The notes: generated by a model not told the origin, from the letters alone. A stretch of 63,495 bases of DNA, filler included, from Sphacelaria rigidula (GCA_964200075.2; 6 parts of 6 records of this genome joined end to end with filler, not necessarily neighbours in it), one strand, 5' to 3'. Shown: positions 5,621 through 60,224, counted from the first letter of the whole stretch. Numbers and translations are program-made.

Positions 5621-7686
5621 TACTATTAGCTGCTGCCGTGGTATATGCTCATGGTGACAAAGTAGTCAATATTCAGACATCCTGCGCGACCATCGATGCT
5701 GGGATTAGCACGTTGGTTTCCCGTTTTGATGTACCGCCCATGAGGCCGGCAACTTTGTCAGTCATGCGCCGATCGTTTGTACTGTGCGGCCTTGTTGACA
5801 TATTTGTATTCCCCGAGTGTGCGCACGGATGTCCGTGTCCAAGGGATCATGTACAAGGTGTTGTGAGCGGTTTGAAGGTTTGGCGTTCACAGCGATGTAA
5901 AATAATTCAATCTTACAGGTGTCTTTGCGATTTTAGCCCATGCGGTGACATATTCTGTCAGGTGCCTCGCCATATGCTGCAATGTATTTCGGGAGGAATC
6001 CCAGCGCATCGTGATCCAAGAATATATTAATTGATTTGATCGATTGAATATGATGAATCAAGACACGAGAGATTCAGGCGTGATGACAAGATACACGCGC
6101 CCAAGGTTATCACACGCGCTAAGGGGAACTCGACGACGGGGAAAGATGAAGAAGTGCAGATGCAAGTAAATGTATCAAACTGTAAGCAAAAGGCAATGCA
6201 CAAGAAAAAGAGAGACATCACACGGAGGAAGAGAAGGAAAAGGAAGTAATTATTGAGTCGGGAAGCAGGTCCCCGTGTGGATAATGAAATGGAAACAAAA
6301 AAAAGAGGAAGCAACTACTGTAGTAATCAGAAATGGTCAGTCCGGGCAACCTGACTAGAGAGGAAAACTTTCCTACGAGGACAAAAATACGTCAAAGCTA
6401 TGTGGAAACACACTATTATGACATGGACTGTCACCAACGACCTCTCAGGGGACGAGACACAAAACCCCGCTACCGTATGAGAAGTAAAACAAATAGACTG
6501 AAAAAATAAAAATAGAGGAAAAGAAGGACATTGGGAGAGATAAGAGGAGGGAAAATAACGAAAAATGGAACACGACAAACCAAGGAGAACACGTGTGGGA
6601 ACGCAGCTAGGAACATGGCCAAGGTTGCAATAAAAAGGAAGAAGACAACAACCGACGAGAAGAAACAGGGTCATGTCAGTTCGGTGACCTAGAAAGCGAA
6701 CGCCGACCATGTGGTGCAGGGAACAGCTTCACTCCCGAGTACTCTTGTCATGCAAAAGAATGTACTGTTGAACAGCTCATACTACCTCTACTTTCCTTTT
6801 GCACGGTTTAGCTGATACTATATTTCCAAAATCTGGCACAGCCTACGTCGTCAGTAACGCTGACCTGAGTACACACGAACTGATGGCTCGGCCGTTTGGG
6901 GTACCTCACTCAAGGGCATCCAATATCAATTAGTAGCTGTCGTTTTAGGGTCATTCCATAGCCGTGAAAGTCGCTCCTTCACCAAGTAAGACACGTTGTG
7001 TCATGTCCCCAGGACCAGGAGATTTTTGTTGTTGTCGGCCATCGTTCACTGCTCGAGTTTGCTGTTTACGGCTGGTAAGTCGGCTCGGCTAGCGAGGCTA
7101 CATTTGCCTCCCATCGTAAGGGTAACTAGAAAGGGCCCCCTGCTTCACACAGGGAGCGAGAGCATTCCCTCTTTACGGACATTTCAGCACTTCCCGTCGT
7201 GCGTTGAGAAAGTCTCCTCTTTTGTATTGTTTGCCAACCAGAAGAGCGCTGGGCGCTCTCACCGCACCTCTTTGTACGTGACTACCCAATCGTTTTCCGG
7301 AGCCCCCCAAGATGTGCTCTGTACGAGCAGAAGGCAGTGTTTTTACTGCCTGCGGAATCAAAGCCTACTCCGTGGGGAATATAACATGTCGGAAAGTAAC
7401 CAAACTGTCCTGCCATGTATCGGACCCTTTTTCCGATAAGGTACAGACCGTATTCTGGCAAAAAAAAGGAAAGAGCTCGACTGGTGCCACGATGAAGTGT
7501 CCACTATCCGGTATTTCTCATGGTGGGGGATGTATTGTAATCGTGGCTAGAAGTGAGGGTCTAGGTATTGATCGTGATCGGAACCACCTGTTTTGCTCTG
7601 AATCAGGTTGTAGTACATTTAACTTCATTCGGTAAACTTTCAAACACGTGATACATTCTCTACAACGTTCTTGTGAATGCGTACAG

Positions 7687-8093
7687 GCATACCAAAGGCT
7701 ACCGCTGAGACGTTTGCTCGAACCCTTGCGCTGGAGATTACCTGGAGTGAGTTTATCCGTGGAACCAATCTAGGGGGTAACCCTTGGACTGAGCCTCCGG
7801 AGGAGGTTGTTCGAGGCGGATGGGCGCAAATCGTCAGCTACTACGAGGCGCTGGAACGCTCGGGAGCAACAACTTCTCATAAGTTGAAGATGGTGCTGGT
7901 TGGTGCGGTATGTGCAGGGAAAACTACTCTCACGAGAGGTTTACTGCGAGGCGGGCCAGCTCCAACGACGACAAGTGAGCGCACTCGAGGTGTGGATGTT
8001 CACATCCAGCCGTGGAGACCCAACCCGGCTCATCCGCTTGAAGTGGTCATTTGGGATTTTGCGGGGCACTGTGACTACTATTCGACACACCAG
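7687..8093 (+). CDS. Internal exon of an LRR-GTPase of the ROCO family (LRR C-cap plus ROC G1-G3)
   Basis: Acceptor TACAG|G at 7686/7687 and donor CAG|GTAAAA at 8093/8094. Translation has the LRR cap NLGGNPWTEPPEEVVRGG...YYEAL, P-loop GAVCAGKT, switch I RTRGVDV and G3 WDFAG..DYYSTHQ, all diagnostic of ROC domains. The rest of the gene is not found on this contig. Confidence 0.9.
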
Positions 8094-10501
8094 GTAAAAG
8101 CTACAGGCAGTCTTTTCGGGGCTAGACTGCTGGCGGTTTTTATTTTCAAGCCTTGGGCGTAGATCGTGTGAGACAGTCCAATGACGTTGTGAACAGTGGT
8201 GTACAGTGATTTTCTATCCACGAGACCGCAAAGGGAAATGTAAATACTTCCACCCCCTTATTCCAGATGGTACTCGCCGGATCAGTTACTCATGGACGGA
8301 GTGGCCCTGCGTTCTCATCGCTCCACGCCCTTCCGTGAAGAGTGGACACGGGATGGGTGCAAAGCGTTACCTGGACGAACACAGTAGCAATTTCTCTCCC
8401 ACGGGATGGTTCGATGTGATTGTGGTGTGCACCAGTTCAAAATATTGTAAAACGACAACCTCACGCTGCTGAAATATGATGTCATTCGTTCCTACTCTGA
8501 AGGGTGCTTTGAAAGAGCAGCTCACATGAAGCACGGCGCGTAGGAAACGCATATCGATGCCGGCATCTATAGGACAACAGGACTACCAAGAACTCGTACA
8601 CACAAAAGAGTTCTGCCACGCACACTAGGATGAGCGTATTGCCTGTCTGTGCAATATATACTCCTGCATGTTGTATTTCGGGCACCGAAATTACCTGCAT
8701 AACATCAATTCACCAAAAATGGTAATCATTATTTTACGGCAGTGTGTATGAGCTGAGCCAGCTTGGAGACGAGCTTGAGCTGTCACAGTCATATCTCATC
8801 GACGCAGACATTTTCGGTCGTGATCCGCAAATCTTGTGAGTCATCTGATTTGGGGACAGGAACCCACTTACGCAAAAGCCCGGTCAAATGCCTCCTCACC
8901 GATAAACGCTGTGCGGAGTAAACCTCGTCACCGTAGAACCAGCGGATGGCGCTGATTTTGGGTATTACGATTCCTTTGGGCACGGGGAAACAATCAATGC
9001 CCTCACCCCCACGTCATCTGTTATTTTTAAAGAGACGTGACGCGCACAATACCCCATTCTAAAATTGATACATGACATGGATTTCGTGTTGAGTTGGAGG
9101 TGTGGTCTGAAATTTGTCGAAGAATGGAGCCTGGTTCGCGCTCATTAACCAAAGTTGTGTCATCATCTCAAATGCCTTCCGCGATACCCACCAAATCGTC
9201 GAACACATGTATCGAGCTGACCGCAAAGAGCAGGCGACGAGGGTGAAAGCGGGATTTTTGTCCAAGGCCATAGCGATGGCGCTGAGGGCGAAACGGTACC
9301 TTTATCAATGAGTGATCTTCAAACTGCTATAGTTAATTGAAAACATGATTTCTCAACCAAAATTATTCGATCAACACGTTCTTTGAATCCTAGTGATGCA
9401 TCAGCGCGGAATCTAACAGAAACATGTGTGGAACCGATTACTATATGGGATCGAGTTATACCTCACACCGTGGGTTTGTTTTTGTCGAGGATGTGGGGGG
9501 TTGGCGTTATGTGGTCGCCACTTAAAAATGGCACGAAAGACCGCGGAAGGGTTTCCCCATATCGGTGGTATGAAAGCTCAGATCTTCCTCAAAAAGGCAG
9601 TGCCGCAGGTATTGGTGCTTTAAATGGAAACAAGCCGTATTGTTACCACTATTTCATAGTTTCTCTGCTTTTTGGCGGCTTCCGTGGGTCCCAGCGTGAA
9701 GACCCCCTTGGAAGGCGGTACAGGATGCCTCGAAATAAAACAGGTTAATATTATACGTCCCGGGTGGTCCAAGAAACACATGATATGTACGTGGTTTGGT
9801 TGCGAAACTCGAAAACCTAGTGCAGTGTTTTGCATTATACCCGAAACACATGTTTCATATCAAAATCAAGTAGTTGGTAGTTTGCACGTTTCAAGCTCAC
9901 TTCATCGCAAAGCTTCACGCCGTTTTCAGCAGTTGGAGCATCAAATTTTGCACACACGCATCATGGGCCATCACAAATCTGTTAATGGACGACGAGTTCA
10001 TCACGGTCGGCATTTTCCACAGTTTTCGGGTGTCCAGCGTGATTCAGAGATGATTTAAGTTCCCCGAGAACCGTAGAACACCCGAAAAAAGATTATCAAC
10101 TGAAGAACGACAAAAAAAAAACCTCGTTCGTCGATCGTGTTGTTTTGACTCGTAGTTATTACTTCCTCTGTCCCACAAGATAAGCCCGTTTGGAGGTTTT
10201 GCCGCATCTCTCGTGGGTGTTTTCTGCTTCTCCCGAACCCTTGTTTTGGAGCAGAACTCTAAACCGTGGCTGTTGCCGAGCCCCCAATAGACAAGCAGCT
10301 ACACTCACGGCGATCAGAGTGTGTCGGTCGTGCACAACCGGAATCTACCGGTTGACAGCCTTCCCATCGATTTTTGGAGAAACGTATTTTTTCATGGTTC
10401 CCGACGCGTTTCGGAGAACCGACCGAAACCGCCATTTTTTATTCTGGCGCCACCACAGCACTATTAACAGTGTTTTCGTGAGATTGAGAGTAGATGACAC
10501 G

Positions 10502-10601
10502 NNNNNNNNNNNNNNNNNNNNNNNNNNNNNNNNNNNNNNNNNNNNTTAATTAATTAANNNNNNNNNNNNNNNNNNNNNNNNNNNNNNNNNNNNNNNNNNN
10601 N
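10502..10601. other. Artificial contig linker N44-TTAATTAATTAA-N44
   Basis: Exactly 100 bp with stop codons in all six frames; identical at five places. Confidence 0.97.
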
Positions 10602-21102: not shown

Positions 21103-21202
21103 NNNNNNNNNNNNNNNNNNNNNNNNNNNNNNNNNNNNNNNNNNNNTTAATTAATTAANNNNNNNNNNNNNNNNNNNNNNNNNNNNNNNNNNNNNNNNNN
21201 NN
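21103..21202. other. Artificial contig linker
   Basis: N44-TTAATTAATTAA-N44. Confidence 0.97.
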
Positions 21203-27361: not shown

Positions 27362-29394
27362 ACACAACGAACCCAACTACAGGATCATCGGAATAGTGTG
27401 CATACTCGGTACAATTAAGAGTCCATAACTTCCCAGACTTGTGAAACAGCGGAAGTATATATTCCAGTATGGGACAATCGGAACAGAAACAAGTGTACTA
27501 CCCGTGTATACATGTGATGACCTTCAGAGCTGAGTTGCACGTGGTGCGTGTTTGTATGATCACGAGGGGTTGCGACGTATCGGAAATCGTACATGCGCCG
27601 AAGGGGGCAACTATCCTATATACAGTACCTAGAGTGGTAGCCCTTCCCTTCGTGGATCCCTTCCAACAAGAACGCGTTTGGGACTCGAGGCAATCCCACA
27701 CGTAGCTCAAATCGCATACTGCAGCACACTAAAGAAATGTGGAGTGACATCTGCATCATATCAAAGCCGTCAAAACGTGCGACGAGAAATCACTCCGTCT
27801 GCATCGATGTACTACAACAGTAGAGGTGTCGAACTCCTGTGGAGTCCACGATGCCCATAAGCGGTCCGCACGCGCGATCGCTGAGGCCGTGCCTTCACCG
27901 TGTGGAATCCATCACGTCTCGTGCTTGCGTTACCTGCGGTAAACCAATACAGGATATCGTTGCAGATGCGGACAGTACGATTTAAGTCACTTGCTGACCG
28001 GTCGAGGTAGAGGTGATTTTCATCCAGTGCGTTATCTCGCTCATCTCCACACATCACTTATCGATGAAGTAGTGACTGGTCGCTGTACCAGAGACCGTCT
28101 CATCGTCCGCAGTCTCTCAAGACCTCCTGCATTTCGTGCTCATTATGCAACCGGCGGCGAGCCAACACGACACAATACCGAGCAGATAGGTGCCCGTGGG
28201 ATTGGCGAACGGACCACTTCGCACGCAGGAACAGCATGATTTGCTCTTCCCTCCGTGTTGGGCAAATGAACCGACCTTGACCCGTCAATCAACGGAGTAA
28301 CGCTCCAACGACAGCGCCGCACAAACTTCGTCTCTGTGAGCTACCTTCATTTCTCCGAAATATGACAACTCGCACCAAATGTTTTGAAAGATGCTTCGCA
28401 GATGGAGACTGGGCGGCTGGAATGTGATGGAGATGGGGTGCACGCGTCTAGAGCACATCGGCGAAATTTGGGGTGTTGAAAAATGACACGCGGAACAGTC
28501 CCCTCCTGGTCAATCGAAAGAAATATTAGACCCCACCGGCGCCATGTTATCATTACCGATGCCAAGGCTTGCAAATGATAGTTGAAAATCGCCCAGACAC
28601 GTGGAATGGCGCAAACGTTGCGTGGACACCCCTTGGACCAGCGATCAACTGTTTCCTTCCTTTTGGCCGATCAGGCCGAGGAAATTGTGAATTTGGTGAT
28701 TTTGAGTCGTGATGATTTGTCCTAAGCGTGGTCAATTACGCGTGAAGTAGTGGTGGACAGCTTCACGCTTCGTCTTCCGTGTTGCGGTCGACTTGTACAG
28801 CATAGGTCAGGCGTTTTGTGGTAGTAACATAGTACATGACGAACGACTTTGCCCCGGGCCAGTCACTCGCTGACTACTTCAGGTGTTTTTTGCCTCTTTT
28901 TCTCCCCGTCTGCTTCAGGCACGGCCAGTTGAAACTTAACTGGCCACATCTGTTCACAGCCCCACTGGTATACAGCTGCTTGCTGTAGCGCACGAAACAG
29001 TACTGTACCTGTTCCTCTTGGCGGAGGATAGGAGAAGGGGGTACTTTGGATATTCCCTACTCCCATGATATCTGTGCACAACAAGAATTTCCCAATTAAG
29101 CATTTTTGGTGTTTCACGCCTCTTCGGACAATTTTTTTTGGATTGAAGCATTTCTGTTGAAATCGAACGGAAAGTAGAACGCCGAGTCTCGCTGCAAATA
29201 AGAGTCTCTTACCATCTGTCGCGCTCTGCAATCGCGACCATTTCCGGCGAGTGCGAACGACAGTTGTACTGCTAGATTGTAGTCATTCACGTCTACATAT
29301 GACGTACAACCTGGGCCAGCTTGAAAGCGGCTAAAAGTTGCTCCCACCACAACTTTTCCAGTTTCCCGAATGAACCCGATGTAAGCATATCACT

Positions 29395-30847: not shown

Positions 30848-31701
30848 CTACACTCCTCCCATTCCAGCGCCACCGTGTGTAGGAGAAGGAGCTGTCACCT
30901 CTACCTTCGTTCCTGCTTCTACCCTAGGCACGGAAGACACCTCACGATCCGCCCCTGAGGGTAGCTGGCCCGGAAGTAAGAGTGGTGTTACACCACTACG
31001 CCTGGCAAAAGGGTACACACTACGCTTGCGTTTTGTTCCTTGGGCGCCAGCAACGCTTTCTCCACCACCGTCGGCTGTGCTGCTGCTTCCTCCACCACCG
31101 TCGCTTGTGGTGCGGGTGGAGGTGGGCTCCCCAGCGCTGGGGTATTCCATGTCGTACAGTGTAGCTACTTCATGCACAGTGGGATACTGTCGGCAACGTT
31201 TTGCCTCATCAAGGTCGTCGTTATTGAAAATATCCAATTTCAAGCGTCCCTCTTTGCTAGACTCGTAGCTCATCACACGAACCCTCCCTGCCCTGGCATT
31301 CTTCGAGCAGAACTCCGCCTTTTTGCTTCCCGCTACACCATACGACGGCTTCTTCGAGCAGCCCTCGTCTCCGCATTTCCTTGTCACCACATCCACCATT
31401 GCCACCCTGGCATGCTCGATGCAGAACTCCGCCTTCTTGCTTCCCGCTACACCATACAACGGCCCTCTGAAGCAGCCCTCTTCGCAGCATTTCTTCCTCA
31501 CTACATCCACCATCCCCGCCCTGGCATGCCGAGAGCAGAACTCCGCCTTCGTGCTTCCCGCTACACCATGCGACGGCTTCTTCGAGCAGCCCTCGTCGCC
31601 GCATTTCTTCCTCACCACATCCACCATTCCCGCCCTGGCATGCTGAGAGCAGAACTCCGCCTTCTTGCTTCCTGCTACACCATACGATGGCGGCTTCCAG
31701 C
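30848..31701 (-). CDS. EsV-1-7 cysteine-rich repeat protein, 5'-truncated by contig end
   Basis: Open frame from the contig edge to TAG at 30848. About 3.6 tandem 38-aa (114-bp) units MVDVVRKKCGDEGCSKKPSYGVAGSKKAEFCSxHARAG (C-x4-C...C-x2-H), the EsV-1-7 repeat pattern, then a low-complexity tail with TKRKR. Confidence 0.9.
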
Positions 31702-31801
31702 NNNNNNNNNNNNNNNNNNNNNNNNNNNNNNNNNNNNNNNNNNNNTTAATTAATTAANNNNNNNNNNNNNNNNNNNNNNNNNNNNNNNNNNNNNNNNNNN
31801 N
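31702..31801. other. Artificial contig linker
   Basis: N44-TTAATTAATTAA-N44. Confidence 0.97.
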
Positions 31802-42299: not shown

Positions 42300-42399
42300 N
42301 NNNNNNNNNNNNNNNNNNNNNNNNNNNNNNNNNNNNNNNNNNNTTAATTAATTAANNNNNNNNNNNNNNNNNNNNNNNNNNNNNNNNNNNNNNNNNNNN
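42300..42399. other. Artificial contig linker
   Basis: N44-TTAATTAATTAA-N44. Confidence 0.97.
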
Positions 42400-52897: not shown

Positions 52898-52997
52898 NNN
52901 NNNNNNNNNNNNNNNNNNNNNNNNNNNNNNNNNNNNNNNNNTTAATTAATTAANNNNNNNNNNNNNNNNNNNNNNNNNNNNNNNNNNNNNNNNNNNN
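52898..52997. other. Artificial contig linker
   Basis: N44-TTAATTAATTAA-N44. Confidence 0.97.
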
Positions 52998-53003
52998 CCA
53001 AAA

Positions 53004-53041
<38 letters not shown>

Positions 53042-53144
53042 ACCCACCCGTCACGCCCCCTTAGCGTGTGCCGTCATCATCGACGTACGAGCCCAGAATC
53101 ATAAAGATAATGTGTCATGATTCACAGTACACGGCGGCACCTAC

Positions 53145-53265
53145 CTCCAGACGTTCTGCGTAGTTCATGAGGTGCGGGCAGCCTCGCCAAGTACGGTTAA
53201 CCTTCGGCTTATTCTTATGGATGGTCAGTTGCCCCCGCAGATATGCTCTGTACTGGTCTCCGAAA
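53145..53265 (-). CDS. DUF6625-like protein, exon 4
   Basis: AGCAG|T TTC (phase 2 fits) ... GAG|GTAGGT; (S)FGDQYRAYLRGQLTIHKNKPKVNRTWRGCPHL. Gene runs off the contig. Confidence 0.85.
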
Positions 53266-53805
53266 CTGCTCGGACGTGAGGGGAAAGGTATAGTAGCATC
53301 AAAATAGCACTACACCGAGGATGCTTATGAAAAAAATATTCAACAGGTGCTCTTGTGCTTGCTTTTGCTTTTACTAACGATATTTGCGAAAGGGGAGGTG
53401 TGGTCTCGCCAGACGCTTAAGCAGAGAATATGATTCTCTACAGAACATTCTTCACCCACACTGCCGGCTCAAAGGTAAGATGCGATAGTCTAGGTAATAA
53501 CGCGAAAACGGGCGACTCCCGGAATATACCACCCCACCTCAACCGTATTCCAAAAATCTTGGAACAAGCAGATTGACAGCGTGCGTAGAACTTCATGTAG
53601 GCTGTAAGCATGGCGCTAAAGAACGCAATAACGTGTGACATAGAGCGTATTCCAGCCACCAGCCATGAAAGTTATGCACGGTTAGTTACTGCCACCATTT
53701 CGACCACAACCTATACATCCTGCAAGACTCCAAGTGTCCTTGCCCACCAGTAAAGGCATACGATAGACCGCATTTCCCCCATGTACGTGAGCACCTACAT
53801 GTCAC

Positions 53806-53975
53806 CTGAAGGTGATGATGTCAAAATCGCGAAGTTCGTTGGGCTCCAGCCAGCCCCGACGCATATCTCCGAAGAGCACGTCAAGGTCACCGAAGGCCCA
53901 GTGGGAATAGTTCTTCAGGTACTCTCGAAACAACCACCCCAGCGCCGGCTTAAACTCCACCAGGTAGTATGGCGA
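53806..53975 (-). CDS. DUF6625-like protein, exon 3 (DxD motif)
   Basis: ACCAG|TCG ... AG|GTGACA; SPYYLVEFKPALGWLFREYLKNYSHWAFGDLDVLFGDM..FDIITF. Confidence 0.88.
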
Positions 53976-54579
53976 CTGGTGCACACGTGAATTTATTTTA
54001 GACGGAGAAACGGCCGAGAGAACACCGGATATTATGGAATGTTTGAGTTTGTCACGTCGTACCTGTGACCACGTACTGGGTACTTGTACCCCCGATCTTG
54101 ATACCCGAACCCACATCGCTGGGTCTCGGTTGGTACGTTCGTGAGCAGAACATCTACGCATTCCTTGGGCTCAACAGCGTATTCTCGGACAGCGCGGAAT
54201 GAATGGTGTAGCCAAGTGCGGAGTCGTGTTTTGTGCGTCTGATCCCTCGACCTCTTCTTGACAGGGCGCTACTCGAACGATGAAAACGTTCGCTGGCTAT
54301 GCAGTCACCATGCAGTGACACCCCGGCGGGAACCTGAACGGGACTCCTTTACTGTACGCGCATGCGTTCGTGGACTTCGCCTTTGGCACGATCAACAATG
54401 ATCTACAGATAGCACAAGATCGACTACGAGCACAGTACAAGATTGACTACGAGTTGACTACGAGTATGGTATCGAAGTAAGCAAGTCAGACGGTGGCGAC
54501 GCTTATGATAAAAAAAGCTGCAGTAGGCACTACTGTGTGAAACCTATGTTTCATCTCACATGTATACGCGCCCCTATGG

Positions 54580-54865
54580 TCTAAGTGGTGTAGTGACAAC
54601 CTGGTAGGGCGGGACAATTAGGGTTAAAACCCCAGGGATGCATTTTGTTTTCCCCGAGGAGTATCTGATTTCCGGCGTTGAAAACGCAAGGGCATGCGTA
54701 GCAAAAAAGGTATACTTCTTGTAAGATTCGACGCGGTGCGGAATTGACGATTTATTCCGCGATACCAAAAAGTAAGGTTTGTGCCGGAGGATAGATGGGT
54801 GATGCCTCGAGACTACGTACTCATCCCAAGGAATGGGGCGGGCGGATTCCAGGACGAAAAACTAA
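54580..54865 (+). mobile_element. Diverged SINE family B copy (intronic)
   Basis: AGTGGTGTAGTG and GGGTTAAAACC box remnants, CCGCGATACCAAAAAGTAAGG and GAGACTACGTACTCATCCC core. Confidence 0.55.
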
Positions 54866-55831
54866 TAGCCCTGAAAACATCGCAGACGTTGAATACTTGG
54901 AGTGCTTAAAATCACTACGTACAAGAGGCGAGTCGGGCATCCTGTGAAACCAAAGTGCACGACAGCACGATGAAATTCCACAAAACCAGGTGAGCACTGC
55001 CACAAAAAACTTGAACGAGGTGAGTCGATCACTCAGTAGAACAGGACAGCCAATATTTGCCGATCACCTTGCGATTCTGATTCTATAGTTTCAAACTGCA
55101 GCCGAATTGCGCTGTCTTTGTTAATACAACACAGAACCTGCCAGACTCGACCTGAACACTTCCGTTGATTGTGTGGTATGATGAAACGTGAACGAATTTA
55201 CCCCTAAGGTCTAATCCATAACCCTCTGCCCGGAGCGGAACCAACTCTTTGGAGGAAGATCATGTGCCATGAGCCAGCAAAGCACAGAGGAACCCCAGGG
55301 GAACTACCAACTGCTGGGCTGGATACCCCCTACCACCTTGCAGAGGACGTCGATAGTCACGACAATCCCTGCAGAAACCTCATTGTTTCTCTTTATCGAC
55401 TAGGGTACACTATTGAATTAATACCGTCACTATGTAGGGATCGCCGGGGTATGAGCACCTCGAAACCGAGAGGTTTGTCGGCCCGTGTCGGAAGGTGGGG
55501 GGAGTAAGAAGGGAAGTAGAATCATTACACAAAGTTTCGGCATTTTATGCACCTCCATCGAGCTTCTCGCACAAACTTTACCCTGACTCGTTTCAGTAAG
55601 TTCGTACCTGCAACTTATCCTGCACAGCAGGATATGAACCTCGATAACACTCTGGTGCAAGACTTAACTTTATCCACCTGAAGATGACGTTTAAAACGAA
55701 TTTACCCCCAGTATCAACGTATCACTTGCGTTTAGTTCGCAATTCTAGCACTTGAGTTCAATGTGATATCATTCGTACTTGATTTTCAGTACGCTGGAGA
55801 TATATTTGGCTTTCGTATCCAAAACAAAGAA

Positions 55832-56058
55832 GATGACTTCGTGGTCGACGAAGGAAAGGGATTGCTGAACCCTTCCCGCGATAAAAAATAAGGCAAGCGC
55901 CGCAGAAGGAAGGTGGAGTACAAAAACAAAACAAAACAATAGAAAGTTCCTGCGTTGGCCTTGCTCCTGCGTTGGTCTTGCTCCTGCGTGACCCGGGCTG
56001 ATGTGCCCATATACACCGAAAGGTGTGGACTGGCATCCAGTATAGATGGCATGACAAC

Positions 56059-56121
<63 letters not shown>
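55832..56121 (+). mobile_element. SINE family A body with expanded (CA)n tail
   Basis: Colinear with 27145-27361; (AC)n at ~56057-56121. Confidence 0.8.
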
Positions 56122-56122
<1 letters not shown>

Positions 56123-56311
56123 CCAAAACTTCTTGGGTCCAGTACGGTCATTAACTATTAATACTTGATTATGGTGTTGGTACCAACTACTTTGTTTCAG
56201 CATGGTAGCAGGTTGGACCTAGGATCCGAAACACATCGTGAGGCCGGTCAAGGCAGATACTCGTGCCTGTTTGGTGCATCCTCGTAGGTCCTCGAATGCC
56301 GCGTTGCTCAC

Positions 56312-56659
56312 CATTACGAGTAGCTGATCAAGGAAGGTAGTGGCGAGCTGACGTGCGGCAATCGCGCTAGTCATATCATCGTGCGTGCCCTTCTGTTCGA
56401 TGTCTGATCCCCCCTCCTTGCCAGCAGCCGCGACGGGAACTTCGTGCGGTCTCGAGGTATCACTTTGTTTATCTTCTAATCTTCTTCTCGTCTGTCGATT
56501 CAATGTCTTCCCTGAGGAAGAAGGCTTTTCGCGAGTGTCGTGGTCGTGGTATTCGTCTATATGTCGCTCGACAACCACCCCGGCGAGAATCCATGCTATG
56601 CGCCTGCTGGACATCGGAAAAAACTTGATGTTCGACGGGCCGCCCTTCCTTACCAGTTT
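56312..56659 (-). CDS. DUF6625-like protein, exon 2
   Basis: CGCAG|AAA ... ATG|GTGAGC, 116 codons; KLVRKGGPSNIKFFPMSSRRIAWIL..ATTFLDQLLVM. Confidence 0.8.
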
Positions 56660-57044
56660 CTGCGTTTGAAAAAAGGAAGTGGCGGATTCGGAATATCGTC
56701 TTCGTCGTATGAACCAGCCCTAGGCAGCATGTTATACAGAGCTCGTAGAGCAGCGGCACCCGTGAAAACCAGGGGTCTTCAAAGTTGAAACAGCGATAAC
56801 TTTAGGTAGGTTGGAGTAGAATCATGTGTGCCCACGACGCAACACGAGCAAAGTCAAGGATACTGTTCGATAGTGATGCCGACAAAATGTACCTGGCGGA
56901 GAGTGCCGAATACTCACAACTGATGCTACCTAGTCAGATATGATTGAGAACACAACAAAAGTGTGTGACTTCTACACCGATAGCAGTTACCCACGCCATG
57001 CGTGCAACTGGTGGGTTAATAGCCATCGCTACTGCAAGAGGCAC

Positions 57045-58277
57045 CTGATCGCAAAAAATAATCCAGTCCACGAGGCCTTCGTTGTGCCGGGCCTGCTCCG
57101 CAAAAACATCCCACCACACGGGAAGATCGTTCCCAATGTAAGGGACCACCACCGCAACACGTTGCCCGCCGTACATTTCCGACACCGTCTCTGGTGCCAG
57201 GGTCGGCTGCTCATGGCCCGCGAAAATTGCGGTTTTATCGTTGGCCATGATCATATCAGGTTGCCCTGGTTCCTGTCGCTGGTCTCGCCAGTTTTGTTTA
57301 TTATTCACGGCTTGATTAGTGTCTTGCTCTTGCCAATAATCATCCACGATATTTTGTTTAGTGTTCATCCTGGGTTCACCCATTCTGAGCTTAGTCGTAG
57401 CTGAATGTTTCTCGCTGCTAGGAACACGTGCTGCCTGTTGCGAAAGAGGCGACGATGGAGGCTCGGTGTCACCAGCGTTATTATTGATGGGGTTGTCGCC
57501 CACGTTGTTGTCGGTATCCACGGTATACCCACTTTGGCGCACCACCGCGGCACGGTCTGCGGTGTAGGTGTTCTCCTCAGCAGGCAGCCCCCGATTAGTA
57601 AATACGTGATGCGCCACGACAAGGGGGAGGGGTAGACGCGGGCGCGGCGAGCGCTGCCGATGGACGGCGCCGACTTGCGACGGACCTGCAGATTCTGAGG
57701 TTGGTGCAATATCAACCCCACTGTCCTCCATAAAAATTGCCTCCTTCAGTAGGTACACGTCAACAAATAGAGCTCCAAGAACCACGGCAAGCGATATCCA
57801 TTTCGCGAGCTGGAAAGCCGAGCGGAAGCAAGCACTTCCGCGGGTGCTGCCGCGAGCGCTTCGACTTCCAGGGCTAATGCTGCTGCAACAAAGAAAGCGT
57901 TGGCGTTCTGAAACCAAAGGCGATGCAGTAAAAGCAGAGGCCTTCGCTGTCTCAGGGTGGCTACCACTACCTGTGTCATGATGGTCGTTGTAAGTGACGG
58001 CATGGGATAATCCGGCGTCGCTCGTCGGCGCACAGACCCCATGGCTGAACATGCGGGGTGCTGGTGGTGGTGGTATTGTCGTGTCGCTGCTTGTACGCGA
58101 CCGCAGGCGTGCATGGGTACTGTGCCCGGGAGTTTGATGACCCTCCTGCGCTGGTGGTGTGTATCTGTTGACCTCTGTTTCGGATGCCTCCAGGTCCCCC
58201 CCTTGCTGTGTATTCTTCACCTCTTCCCCGGTGAGACTGCCACTGGGCGTGCTTCTCTGTCGCGAAGATGCAAACAT
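57045..58277 (-). CDS. Type II membrane DUF6625-like (glycosyltransferase-like) protein, exon 1
   Basis: ATG 58277 (start uncertain; frame open to 58463); low-complexity N-terminus, one hydrophobic segment WISLAVVLGALFVDVYLL, long polar stem, then RVAVVVPYIGNDLPVWWDVFAEQARHNEGLVDWIIFCDQ; donor CAG|GTGCCT. Confidence 0.82.
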
Positions 58278-60113: not shown

Positions 60114-60224
60114 GGAGTATAACGTGATAATATCAGACATTTGAAATTCGACCGGAAATCACGAAGCAGTATTTCGCGATTTCCAGTCGAATTTCAAATG
60201 TCCGATCTTTTCACACAATACTCC
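60114..60224. repeat. 111-bp hairpin (MITE-like)
   Basis: GGAGTAT..GACATTTGAAATTCGAC.GGAAATC pairs with GATTTCC.GTCGAATTTCAAATGTC..ATACTCC. Confidence 0.8.

Follow-up and report, generated by a model that had tools for sequence, protein, structure and literature searches.

A DUF6625 gene of the brown alga Sphacelaria rigidula encodes a candidate Golgi glycosyltransferase whose full-length relatives carry a second, GT49-like domain

What kind of protein is encoded on the minus strand between positions 58277 and 53145 of a 63,495-nucleotide stretch of Sphacelaria rigidula DNA (GCA_964200075.2; the whole stretch is called the window here), and could it belong to the machinery that makes brown-algal polysaccharides? 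The preliminary description of this locus proposed a type II membrane protein of the Golgi with a DUF6625-like domain and a DxD motif. It left out a GT49-like second domain, a layout resembling that of LARGE and the fact that the gene is cut by the end of its contig. Models of related proteins now make it fairly probable that the product is a type II, probably Golgi-resident, active retaining alpha-glycosyltransferase with a pseudo-GT49 accessory domain. The window consists of six unrelated contigs of about 10.5 kb each, and the gene lies on one of them (G000:C6388, base 1 of which is window position 52998).

The gene model comprises four exons (58277-57045, 56659-56312, 53975-53806 and 53265-53145, minus strand) with GT donors, AG acceptors and consistent phases; the spliced frame runs for 624 codons without a stop. 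Exon 1 (57045..58277; 411 codons of open reading frame (ORF) closed by a GT donor) encodes the N-terminal tail, the transmembrane (TM) segment, the stem and the beginning of the DUF6625 GT-A domain (its first strand and helix). The open frame has its first Met at the ATG of position 58277; translation may instead start at a later Met (aa 76). Exon 2 (56312..56659; 116 codons, AG/GT ends, phase 0) contains the PSNIKF strand, a helix and a variable insert that is typical of the B-type paralogues described below; comparably long inserts occur in the B proteins of Laminaria and Ectocarpus. Exon 3 (53806..53975; 170 nt) carries the DUF6625 core with EFKP and the DxD, and exon 4 (53145..53265; 121 nt, AG/GT ends) the GD..Y.RGQ motif, a G-loop-like region, and a conserved Cys. 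All motifs quoted in the preliminary description fall into this one spliced frame, namely VVVPYIG at aa 376, DWIIFCD at 404, PSNIKF at 419, YYLVEFKPALG at 530, YSHWAFGDLDVLFG at 550 and LRGQLTIHKN at 593. The gene is incomplete in the window: past its 5' part it leaves the contig at 52998 within intron 4 (52998..53144); the linker at 52898-52997 follows.

The exon structure agrees with that of related genes. In a paralogue on G000:C2625, two exons at the same place match exons 3 and 4 in length (170 and 121 nt) and are likewise bounded by GT/AG, and the genomic ORFs of six relatives diverge directly after the DW.IFC motif, where exon 1 ends. In three DNA sequencing runs all 30 bins are covered, and no differences from the sequence are listed. 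A one-base insertion at 57052, present in one contig at a depth of 2.8, is absent from three deeper runs and was rejected. Three runs that we presume to be RNA yielded short contigs, scattered and without spliced joints, and are uninformative on expression either way.

The assignment to DUF6625 was borne out: exon 3 alone matches PF20330 with 49.4 bits (cut-off 27; E 7.3e-13), while the other three ORFs, tested singly against Pfam, gave no match. Exon 3 is 55-88% identical to 21 database proteins, and the DUF6625 match recurs in 13/13 and 49/51 homologues of two sets. The DLD motif (53880..53888, minus strand), with Asp557 and Asp559, is predicted to bind metal. This DxD is invariant in alignment A4, in 138/138 eukaryotic and 8/8 bacterial rows, and it sits after a core strand in the models of two relatives, P0012 and P0015. 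The Glu of an SAEGC motif is found at a helix start in 133 of 134 eukaryotic rows of A4, and an HFQ.WK motif keeps its His in 85/95 and its Lys in 77/90 of them; positions G207, D208, Q217 and C234 are invariant wherever a eukaryotic row has a residue there. The DxD, Glu and His fall at the positions of the GT-A elements DxD, xED and C-terminal His (C-His) as a section of PMC7185993 sets them out. The window contains the DxD of this catalytic set, and the other elements were scored in relatives.

The fold was judged on P0015, a B-type orthologue with 53% identity to the window protein across the domain (AlphaFold2 model of the N-domain only; mean predicted local distance difference test score (pLDDT) 81.4), and on P0012. 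These models of relatives predict a GT-A fold for the N-domain, as had been proposed. The best matches of P0015 were the GT6 enzyme BoGT6a (Z 10.6; root-mean-square deviation (rmsd) 3.6, 198 residues aligned), XXT1 (10.5), a PBCV-1 glycosyltransferase (10.2) and GTB (9.9). GT8 proteins followed at Z 9.1-9.5, including the LARGE1 N-domain at 9.1, and UGGT was also present. The top Foldseek matches of P0015 were all GT6 (best E 6e-4). By title, the top 50 VIA rows for both models are GT-A-type transferases, and 12 of the 13 top fold rows for the N-domain are, by the families assigned to them, retaining enzymes. The nearest solved folds are therefore GT6 (ABO GTA/GTB, alpha-1,3-GalT, BoGT6a), GT34 (XXT1) and GT8, at Z 9.5-10.6. 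They differ from the N-domain in sequence, with 7-12% identity and no Pfam or Protein Data Bank (PDB) sequence match; the HFQ.WK motif resembles the His-Lys-Trp tail of GT8. At E 0.05-0.1, none of 64 homologues was matched by profiles of GT8 (PF01501), GT6 and GT34. When solved structures in the PDB were searched by sequence with alignments A1 and A3, nothing meaningful emerged, and NCBIfam held no relevant family for ten proteins.

The proposed topology is supported by hydropathy. There is one hydrophobic segment (Kyte-Doolittle windows of 19 residues that begin at aa 153-165, with a maximum of 1.89), and a polar N-terminus of 152 aa precedes it. The predicted single TM segment spans about aa 153-183 (57729..57821, minus strand). 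In each of 10 homologues examined, hydropathy likewise peaks in the N-terminal part (1.77-3.16). A polar, poorly conserved stem follows at about aa 184-371 (57165..57728, minus strand): BLASTP matches to homologues start at aa 362-374, and the equivalent region of the paralogue model has a pLDDT below 50. The protein thus appears to be of type II, with a cytosolic tail, one TM segment, a stem and a lumenal domain, and it is likely to reside in the Golgi.

In relatives with 800-1470 aa there is a second GT-A domain, encoded downstream of the part of the gene in the window. It was modelled in P0012, an A-type paralogue (967 aa, 148-row alignment; pLDDT 80.8, predicted template modelling score 0.81). 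For residues 612-930 of this protein, 29 of 30 ESM Atlas feature matches (0.96) were PF13896 (GT49), and clusters of GT49/LARGE proteins gave TM-scores of 0.70-0.73. The motifs DVTLV, W.GP, L.N.A...T and vP.F occur in the order of LARGE1. The domain is thus of GT49 type by modelled fold and motif order, not by profile score. Its residues were placed in register by eye from the LARGE1 alignment together with one hidden Markov model alignment. The part of PMC9746966 that deals with the GT49 sites of LARGE1 gives DXD 563-565 and His708. The second exon of a GT49 gene of this genome found no match in the PDB, so the C-His position rests on that part of PMC9746966 and on the ORF from this genome. 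Alignment A3 has 148 rows, 68 of which cover the C-domain. At the DxD site, two of the 68 have DxD, 36 (diatom-clade rows) have [DE]x[DE] offset by one residue and 30 have neither. An acidic DxD is found in 0/5 brown-algal rows and is missing from the B-type contig of this genome as well. The Glu of EP[YF] is kept in 1/68 rows and a late C-terminal His in 4/66. To judge from these residues, the C-domain is likely to be catalytically dead, that is, a pseudo-GT49.

Inactive domains are also found as partners in the bi-domain glycosaminoglycan synthases. COSMC (GT31), as a passage of PMC7185993 describes it, similarly retains a GT-A domain without the DxD or catalytic residues. The domain described here differs from both in being GT49-like, fused in cis and inactive by presumption. 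Canonical GT49 genes are present elsewhere in this genome (L020-L026 on G000:C1078, C1631 and C6684); at the C1078 locus the DxD is intact and GT49 segments apparently stand in tandem.

The whole P0012 model most resembles LARGE1. The five best Foldseek entries were LARGE1 (E 5e-12 to 1e-10; the next entry 1.2e-5), and VIA-align gave LARGE1 a Z of 21-22.5 over about 500 residues across both halves (the next entry 15.3). LARGE1 and LARGE2 combine a GT8 xylosyltransferase with a GT49 glucuronyltransferase and act as matriglycan co-polymerases. They have in common with the algal family the type II topology, a stem and tandem GT-A domains, a retaining-type fold followed by a GT49-type fold. Unlike in LARGE, the algal N-domain is DUF6625 and not GT8 (PF01501 in 0/64 homologues; LARGE1 N-domain Z 9.1), the brown-algal C-domain is without DxD and C-His, the packing between the domains differs and identity is 11-12%. 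The algal proteins therefore do not combine a GT8 first domain with an intact DxD in both domains, as LARGE does. The paralogue model shows the two GT-A domains in tandem behind a type II anchor; the C-terminal half of the window gene is deduced from two other contigs, C26227 and C17718. The family resembles LARGE in layout but belongs neither to LARGE nor to GT8 or canonical GT49. The fusion of DUF6625 with a GT49-like domain probably arose independently of LARGE, because the N-domain apparently occurs alone in haptophyte and Rhodelphis rows and in bacteria.

The nearest relatives of the window protein are brown-algal (Laminaria 59%, Ectocarpus 53-56% identity over aa 364-624). Complete relatives have 967-1474 aa and form two paralogous groups, A and B, and the window gene belongs to B. 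In this genome, B-type downstream (3') exons are found on C26227 and C17718, the former with the HFQ.WK His motif of the B copy, and A-type pieces on C13502, C2625 and C25436. Since there is a single B-type N-terminus among the matches, we infer that C6388, C26227 and C17718 carry one gene. Genomes have two or three copies. The assembly comprises 27,214 contigs.

We surveyed the distribution of the family with a profile search, which found 3052 representatives at E<=0.001, the best 150 of which were inspected. Named members are from Fistulifera (diatom), Aureococcus (pelagophyte), Tribonema (xanthophyte), Phaeothamnion, Isochrysis (haptophyte) and Rhodelphis; the clade labels of most rows rest on these few anchors. 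Atlas clusters with the N-domain are mostly haptophyte where their source is known, plus one Pseudomonadota cluster. The two-domain form is present in the brown-algal, pelagophyte and diatom clades and in one further clade. The C-domain profile matched 0/14 rows of the Rhodelphis/haptophyte clade, which suggests that the N-domain is likely to work alone; 11 of these 14 rows and one more cluster member end 36-105 residues past the His motif, and these may be partial gene calls. One Aureococcus gene model, P0020, joins DUF6625 with a WDR19-like protein. It is probably a merge of two genes, because its close relatives P0019 and P0021 lack the WDR19-like part.

A tree of 82 rows (54 eukaryotic, picked from 180, and 28 prokaryotic or viral; LG+G4, quick search) placed the 54 eukaryotic rows on one side with a support of 100 in the SH-like approximate likelihood ratio test (SH-aLRT). 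Since the choice of the eukaryotic rows followed similarity to a eukaryotic profile and Bacteroidota make up most of the bacteria, this tree is not proof of a single origin. Approximately unbiased (AU) tests of the eukaryotic set accepted two positions of the root: prokaryotes together with the single-domain rows had a p-AU of 0.614 (7 log units above the free search), and prokaryotes together with brown algae on one side were not rejected (p-AU 0.415). Brown algae have two old paralogues. The preliminary description had suggested that the enzyme is possibly of bacterial origin and could contribute to brown-algal polysaccharides. The stronger form of this view, in which brown algae took up a bacterial gene for wall polymers of their own, is not supported, as homologues occur in a diatom, a pelagophyte, a xanthophyte, a haptophyte and Rhodelphis; it is this wide distribution, and not the tree, which argues that the family is no brown-algal acquisition. 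A transfer into brown algae is thus disfavoured; one at an earlier date may or may not have taken place.

The association of DUF6625 with bacterial polysaccharide loci, also part of that description, is real. The domain was found in 8/301 genomes of a Bacteroidota sample and in 11/301 of a Bacteroidales sample. All four plasmid records examined, from seven found, place it among capsule/exopolysaccharide (EPS) or nucleotide-sugar genes. At 19 chromosomal loci, inspected within 1.5 kb, ten had a glycosyltransferase, flippase or acyltransferase gene (one below the cut-off), two a sulfotransferase, two peptide-maturation genes and five nothing informative. The neighbours at L027 resemble, by eye, GT2, GT8, GT11 and a polymerase. 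The bacterial PF20330 proteins have in common with the eukaryotic ones the motifs P[YF].G..P, [DE][FY]KP..G and W...DxD...G, a late Glu and a C-terminal His. They differ in being single-domain proteins of about 275-410 aa without TM segment or stem, and are 19-27% identical to the eukaryotic ones; the latter add disulfide-type Cys residues, inserts and, in ochrophytes, the second domain.

Some bacterial and viral loci have features of their own. At L032 and L033 (G052, G028), L030 and L031, Bacteroidota DUF6625 genes stand beside genes for a C39 peptidase-type ATP-binding cassette (C39-ABC) transporter, a lantibiotic dehydratase or a VKOR-thioredoxin protein, which hints at glycosylation of ribosomal peptides. 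Tandem paralogues occur three in a row at L053/L061/L064 (G376), next to a sulfotransferase gene, and as a pair at L054/L062 (G503). The viral collection contained no DUF6625 gene of eukaryotic type; one of its contigs, L049 (IMGVR_UViG_3300009181_005534), has two divergent copies of bacterial type among GT2/GT92-like and GT61 genes.

Together, these results lead us to favour a two-domain transferase with one active site. The lumenal part would consist of two tandem GT-A domains. The N-domain is predicted to bind a nucleotide sugar through Mn2+, the DxD and the His and to add an alpha-linked sugar with retention, and the GT49-derived domain may serve as an acceptor-binding or scaffolding module. 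The product would be a glycan common to ochrophytes, either on glycoproteins or as side chains or linkers of matrix heteropolysaccharides, and not the backbone of alginate or alpha-fucan. Because the GT6, GT34 and GT8 rows are tied, the donor cannot be read off the fold; a UDP-sugar such as galactose or xylose is tentatively proposed, with GDP-mannose as the next, less likely guess. Alginate (beta-mannuronic acid from GDP-alpha-mannuronic acid) and alpha-L-fucans (from GDP-beta-L-fucose) need inverting enzymes, and retention would thus exclude both backbones. In a passage of PMC11468063, low copy number and a pelagophyte homologue are criteria by which GT10 is discounted as fucan synthase. The same criteria fit this family, with its two or three copies and its pelagophyte homologue, and make it a poor candidate for the fucan backbone.

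Several results weigh against this assignment. The Z-scores of the N-domain against GT6, GT34 and GT8 (9.1-10.6) are modest and tied, and an inverting GT31-type enzyme, GfsA (Z 9.4), is among the matches, so that "retaining" is a deduction. The LARGE1 superposition has an rmsd of about 19-20 A, which means that domain order and fold are in common and packing is not. The kinship to GT49 has no significant sequence support: PF13896 was found in 1/64 homologues and below threshold (14.3 bits vs 27). The C-domain profile scored -2.2 bits against the GT49 of this genome, with 38/206 reported shuffles as high and an hhalign probability of 0.4. Trp, Cys, Arg, Asp and Glu-Glu positions of the C-domain are conserved, which indicates that the domain is under constraint and may not be dead, and a passage of PMC7185993 names GT-A enzymes that are active without DxD (GT14, bacterial GT6). 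Finally, protein and exact-pattern searches of G000 did not recover the middle exons of the window paralogue, among them the SAEGC exon with the catalytic Glu.

An unlikely reading is that the N-domain inverts, or transfers sugar phosphate in the manner of Stealth proteins, or acts on peptides or lipids instead of matrix glycans. GT31 enzymes (GfsA 9.4, C1GalT 8.6) and a GlcNAc-1-phosphotransferase (8.5) come within about 2 Z of the top, the invariant Glu could serve as a base, and peptide acceptors would suit the two bacterial loci beside C39-ABC transporter and lantibiotic dehydratase genes; however, GT6, GT34, GT8 and GT24 fill most top ranks in both fold searches, and HFQ.WK looks like a GT8 tail. 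It is quite improbable that the protein is a bifunctional LARGE-like co-polymerase of the Golgi, with a retaining alpha-mannosyl N-domain and an inverting, metal-independent or ExE-dependent beta-glucuronosyl C-domain that together make the glucuronomannan backbone of kelp fucoidan fractions or of diatoms. Such an enzyme would explain why domain order and stereochemical pairing are as in LARGE1, why the fusion is kept in 68/148 rows of A3 and why two acids lie near the DxD site in 38/68 C-domains. The glucuronic acid (GlcA) of the alternating polymer has the beta configuration. Parts of PMC3497013 and PMC7551172 describe 4-linked GlcA that alternates with 2-linked mannose (Man) in Saccharina japonica, a part of PMC6267234 an alpha Man-GlcA linkage in Kjellmaniella and a part of PMC13063451 glucuronomannan and alpha-1,3-mannan in diatoms. 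Yet the brown-algal C-domains of both paralogues are without the DxD acids, the C-His and the EP[YF] Glu, though the polymer is best documented there; the DxD-bearing canonical GT49 genes of this genome could supply the GlcA transfer; and nothing points to GDP-mannose specifically.

We consider it very improbable that a bacterial gene was taken up by brown algae and now makes a polymer specific to their walls, such as the backbone of alginate or fucan. The bacterial genes in capsule/EPS loci, one of them beside GDP-fucose genes, the age of the two brown-algal paralogues and the p-AU of 0.415 are in keeping with it, but the two-domain layout extends to the diatom and pelagophyte clades, DUF6625 to Tribonema, Isochrysis and Rhodelphis, and the copy number is low. 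Moreover, these polymers need inversion, whereas the N-domain resembles retaining enzymes. Least probable of all is a truncated or non-functional B copy. The missing middle exons would suit it; however, 624 codons are free of stops and frameshifts, the splice sites are intact, identity to the Laminaria B protein is 78% (180 tree columns) on a short terminal branch, and two other contigs of a highly divided assembly carry B-type 3' exons. We therefore retain the retaining transferase with a pseudo-GT49 module as the preferred reading.

The remaining features of the window touch other subjects. The contigs are joined by artificial N44-TTAATTAATTAA-N44 linkers (10502-10601, 21103-21202, 31702-31801, 42300-42399 and 52898-52997), so genes across linkers carry no information on synteny. 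Intron 2 contains, at 55840-55940 and 56057-56121, a short interspersed repeat of very high copy number, with a summed depth hundreds of times that of its flanks. It adjoins a (CA)n microsatellite, and a similar stretch lies in the paralogue intron (L002, about 1490-1610). Upstream of the gene, at 60114-60224, is a 52-nt inverted repeat with a 7-nt spacer and 85% complementarity, possibly the end of a small mobile element. On other contigs, an ORF with EsV-1-7 cysteine-rich repeats (30851-31699, minus strand; PF19114, E 2e-54) and an exon with a Roc GTPase domain (7677-8159, plus strand; PF08477, E 7e-7) were recognised. A tblastn match at 28350-28421, also on another contig (E 0.023), is probably due to chance.

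Literature searches for DUF6625 and PF20330 returned no paper that names the family, and topic searches, with subscription papers and supplements outside their scope, no description of a DUF6625-GT49-like fusion. A statement in PMC13380512 holds that in fucoidan metabolism no glycosyltransferase is fully characterised, and candidate lists, as part of PMC11468063 presents them, were drawn from CAZy families. Since this family has no label beyond DUF, it is likely to be absent from such lists. A conserved low-copy family with an invariant DxD, a degenerate domain and orthologues in tractable diatoms and in Ectocarpus gives a concrete test. If the co-polymerase reading were true, the enzyme for a major marine glycan backbone would have a name: the protein would be an independently evolved analogue of LARGE and the first backbone synthase to be identified for glucuronomannan, and would found a new glycosyltransferase family. 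If the more conservative reading that we prefer is true, it would provide a function for DUF6625 and a new case of a tandem GT-A protein with a pseudo-GT49 module.

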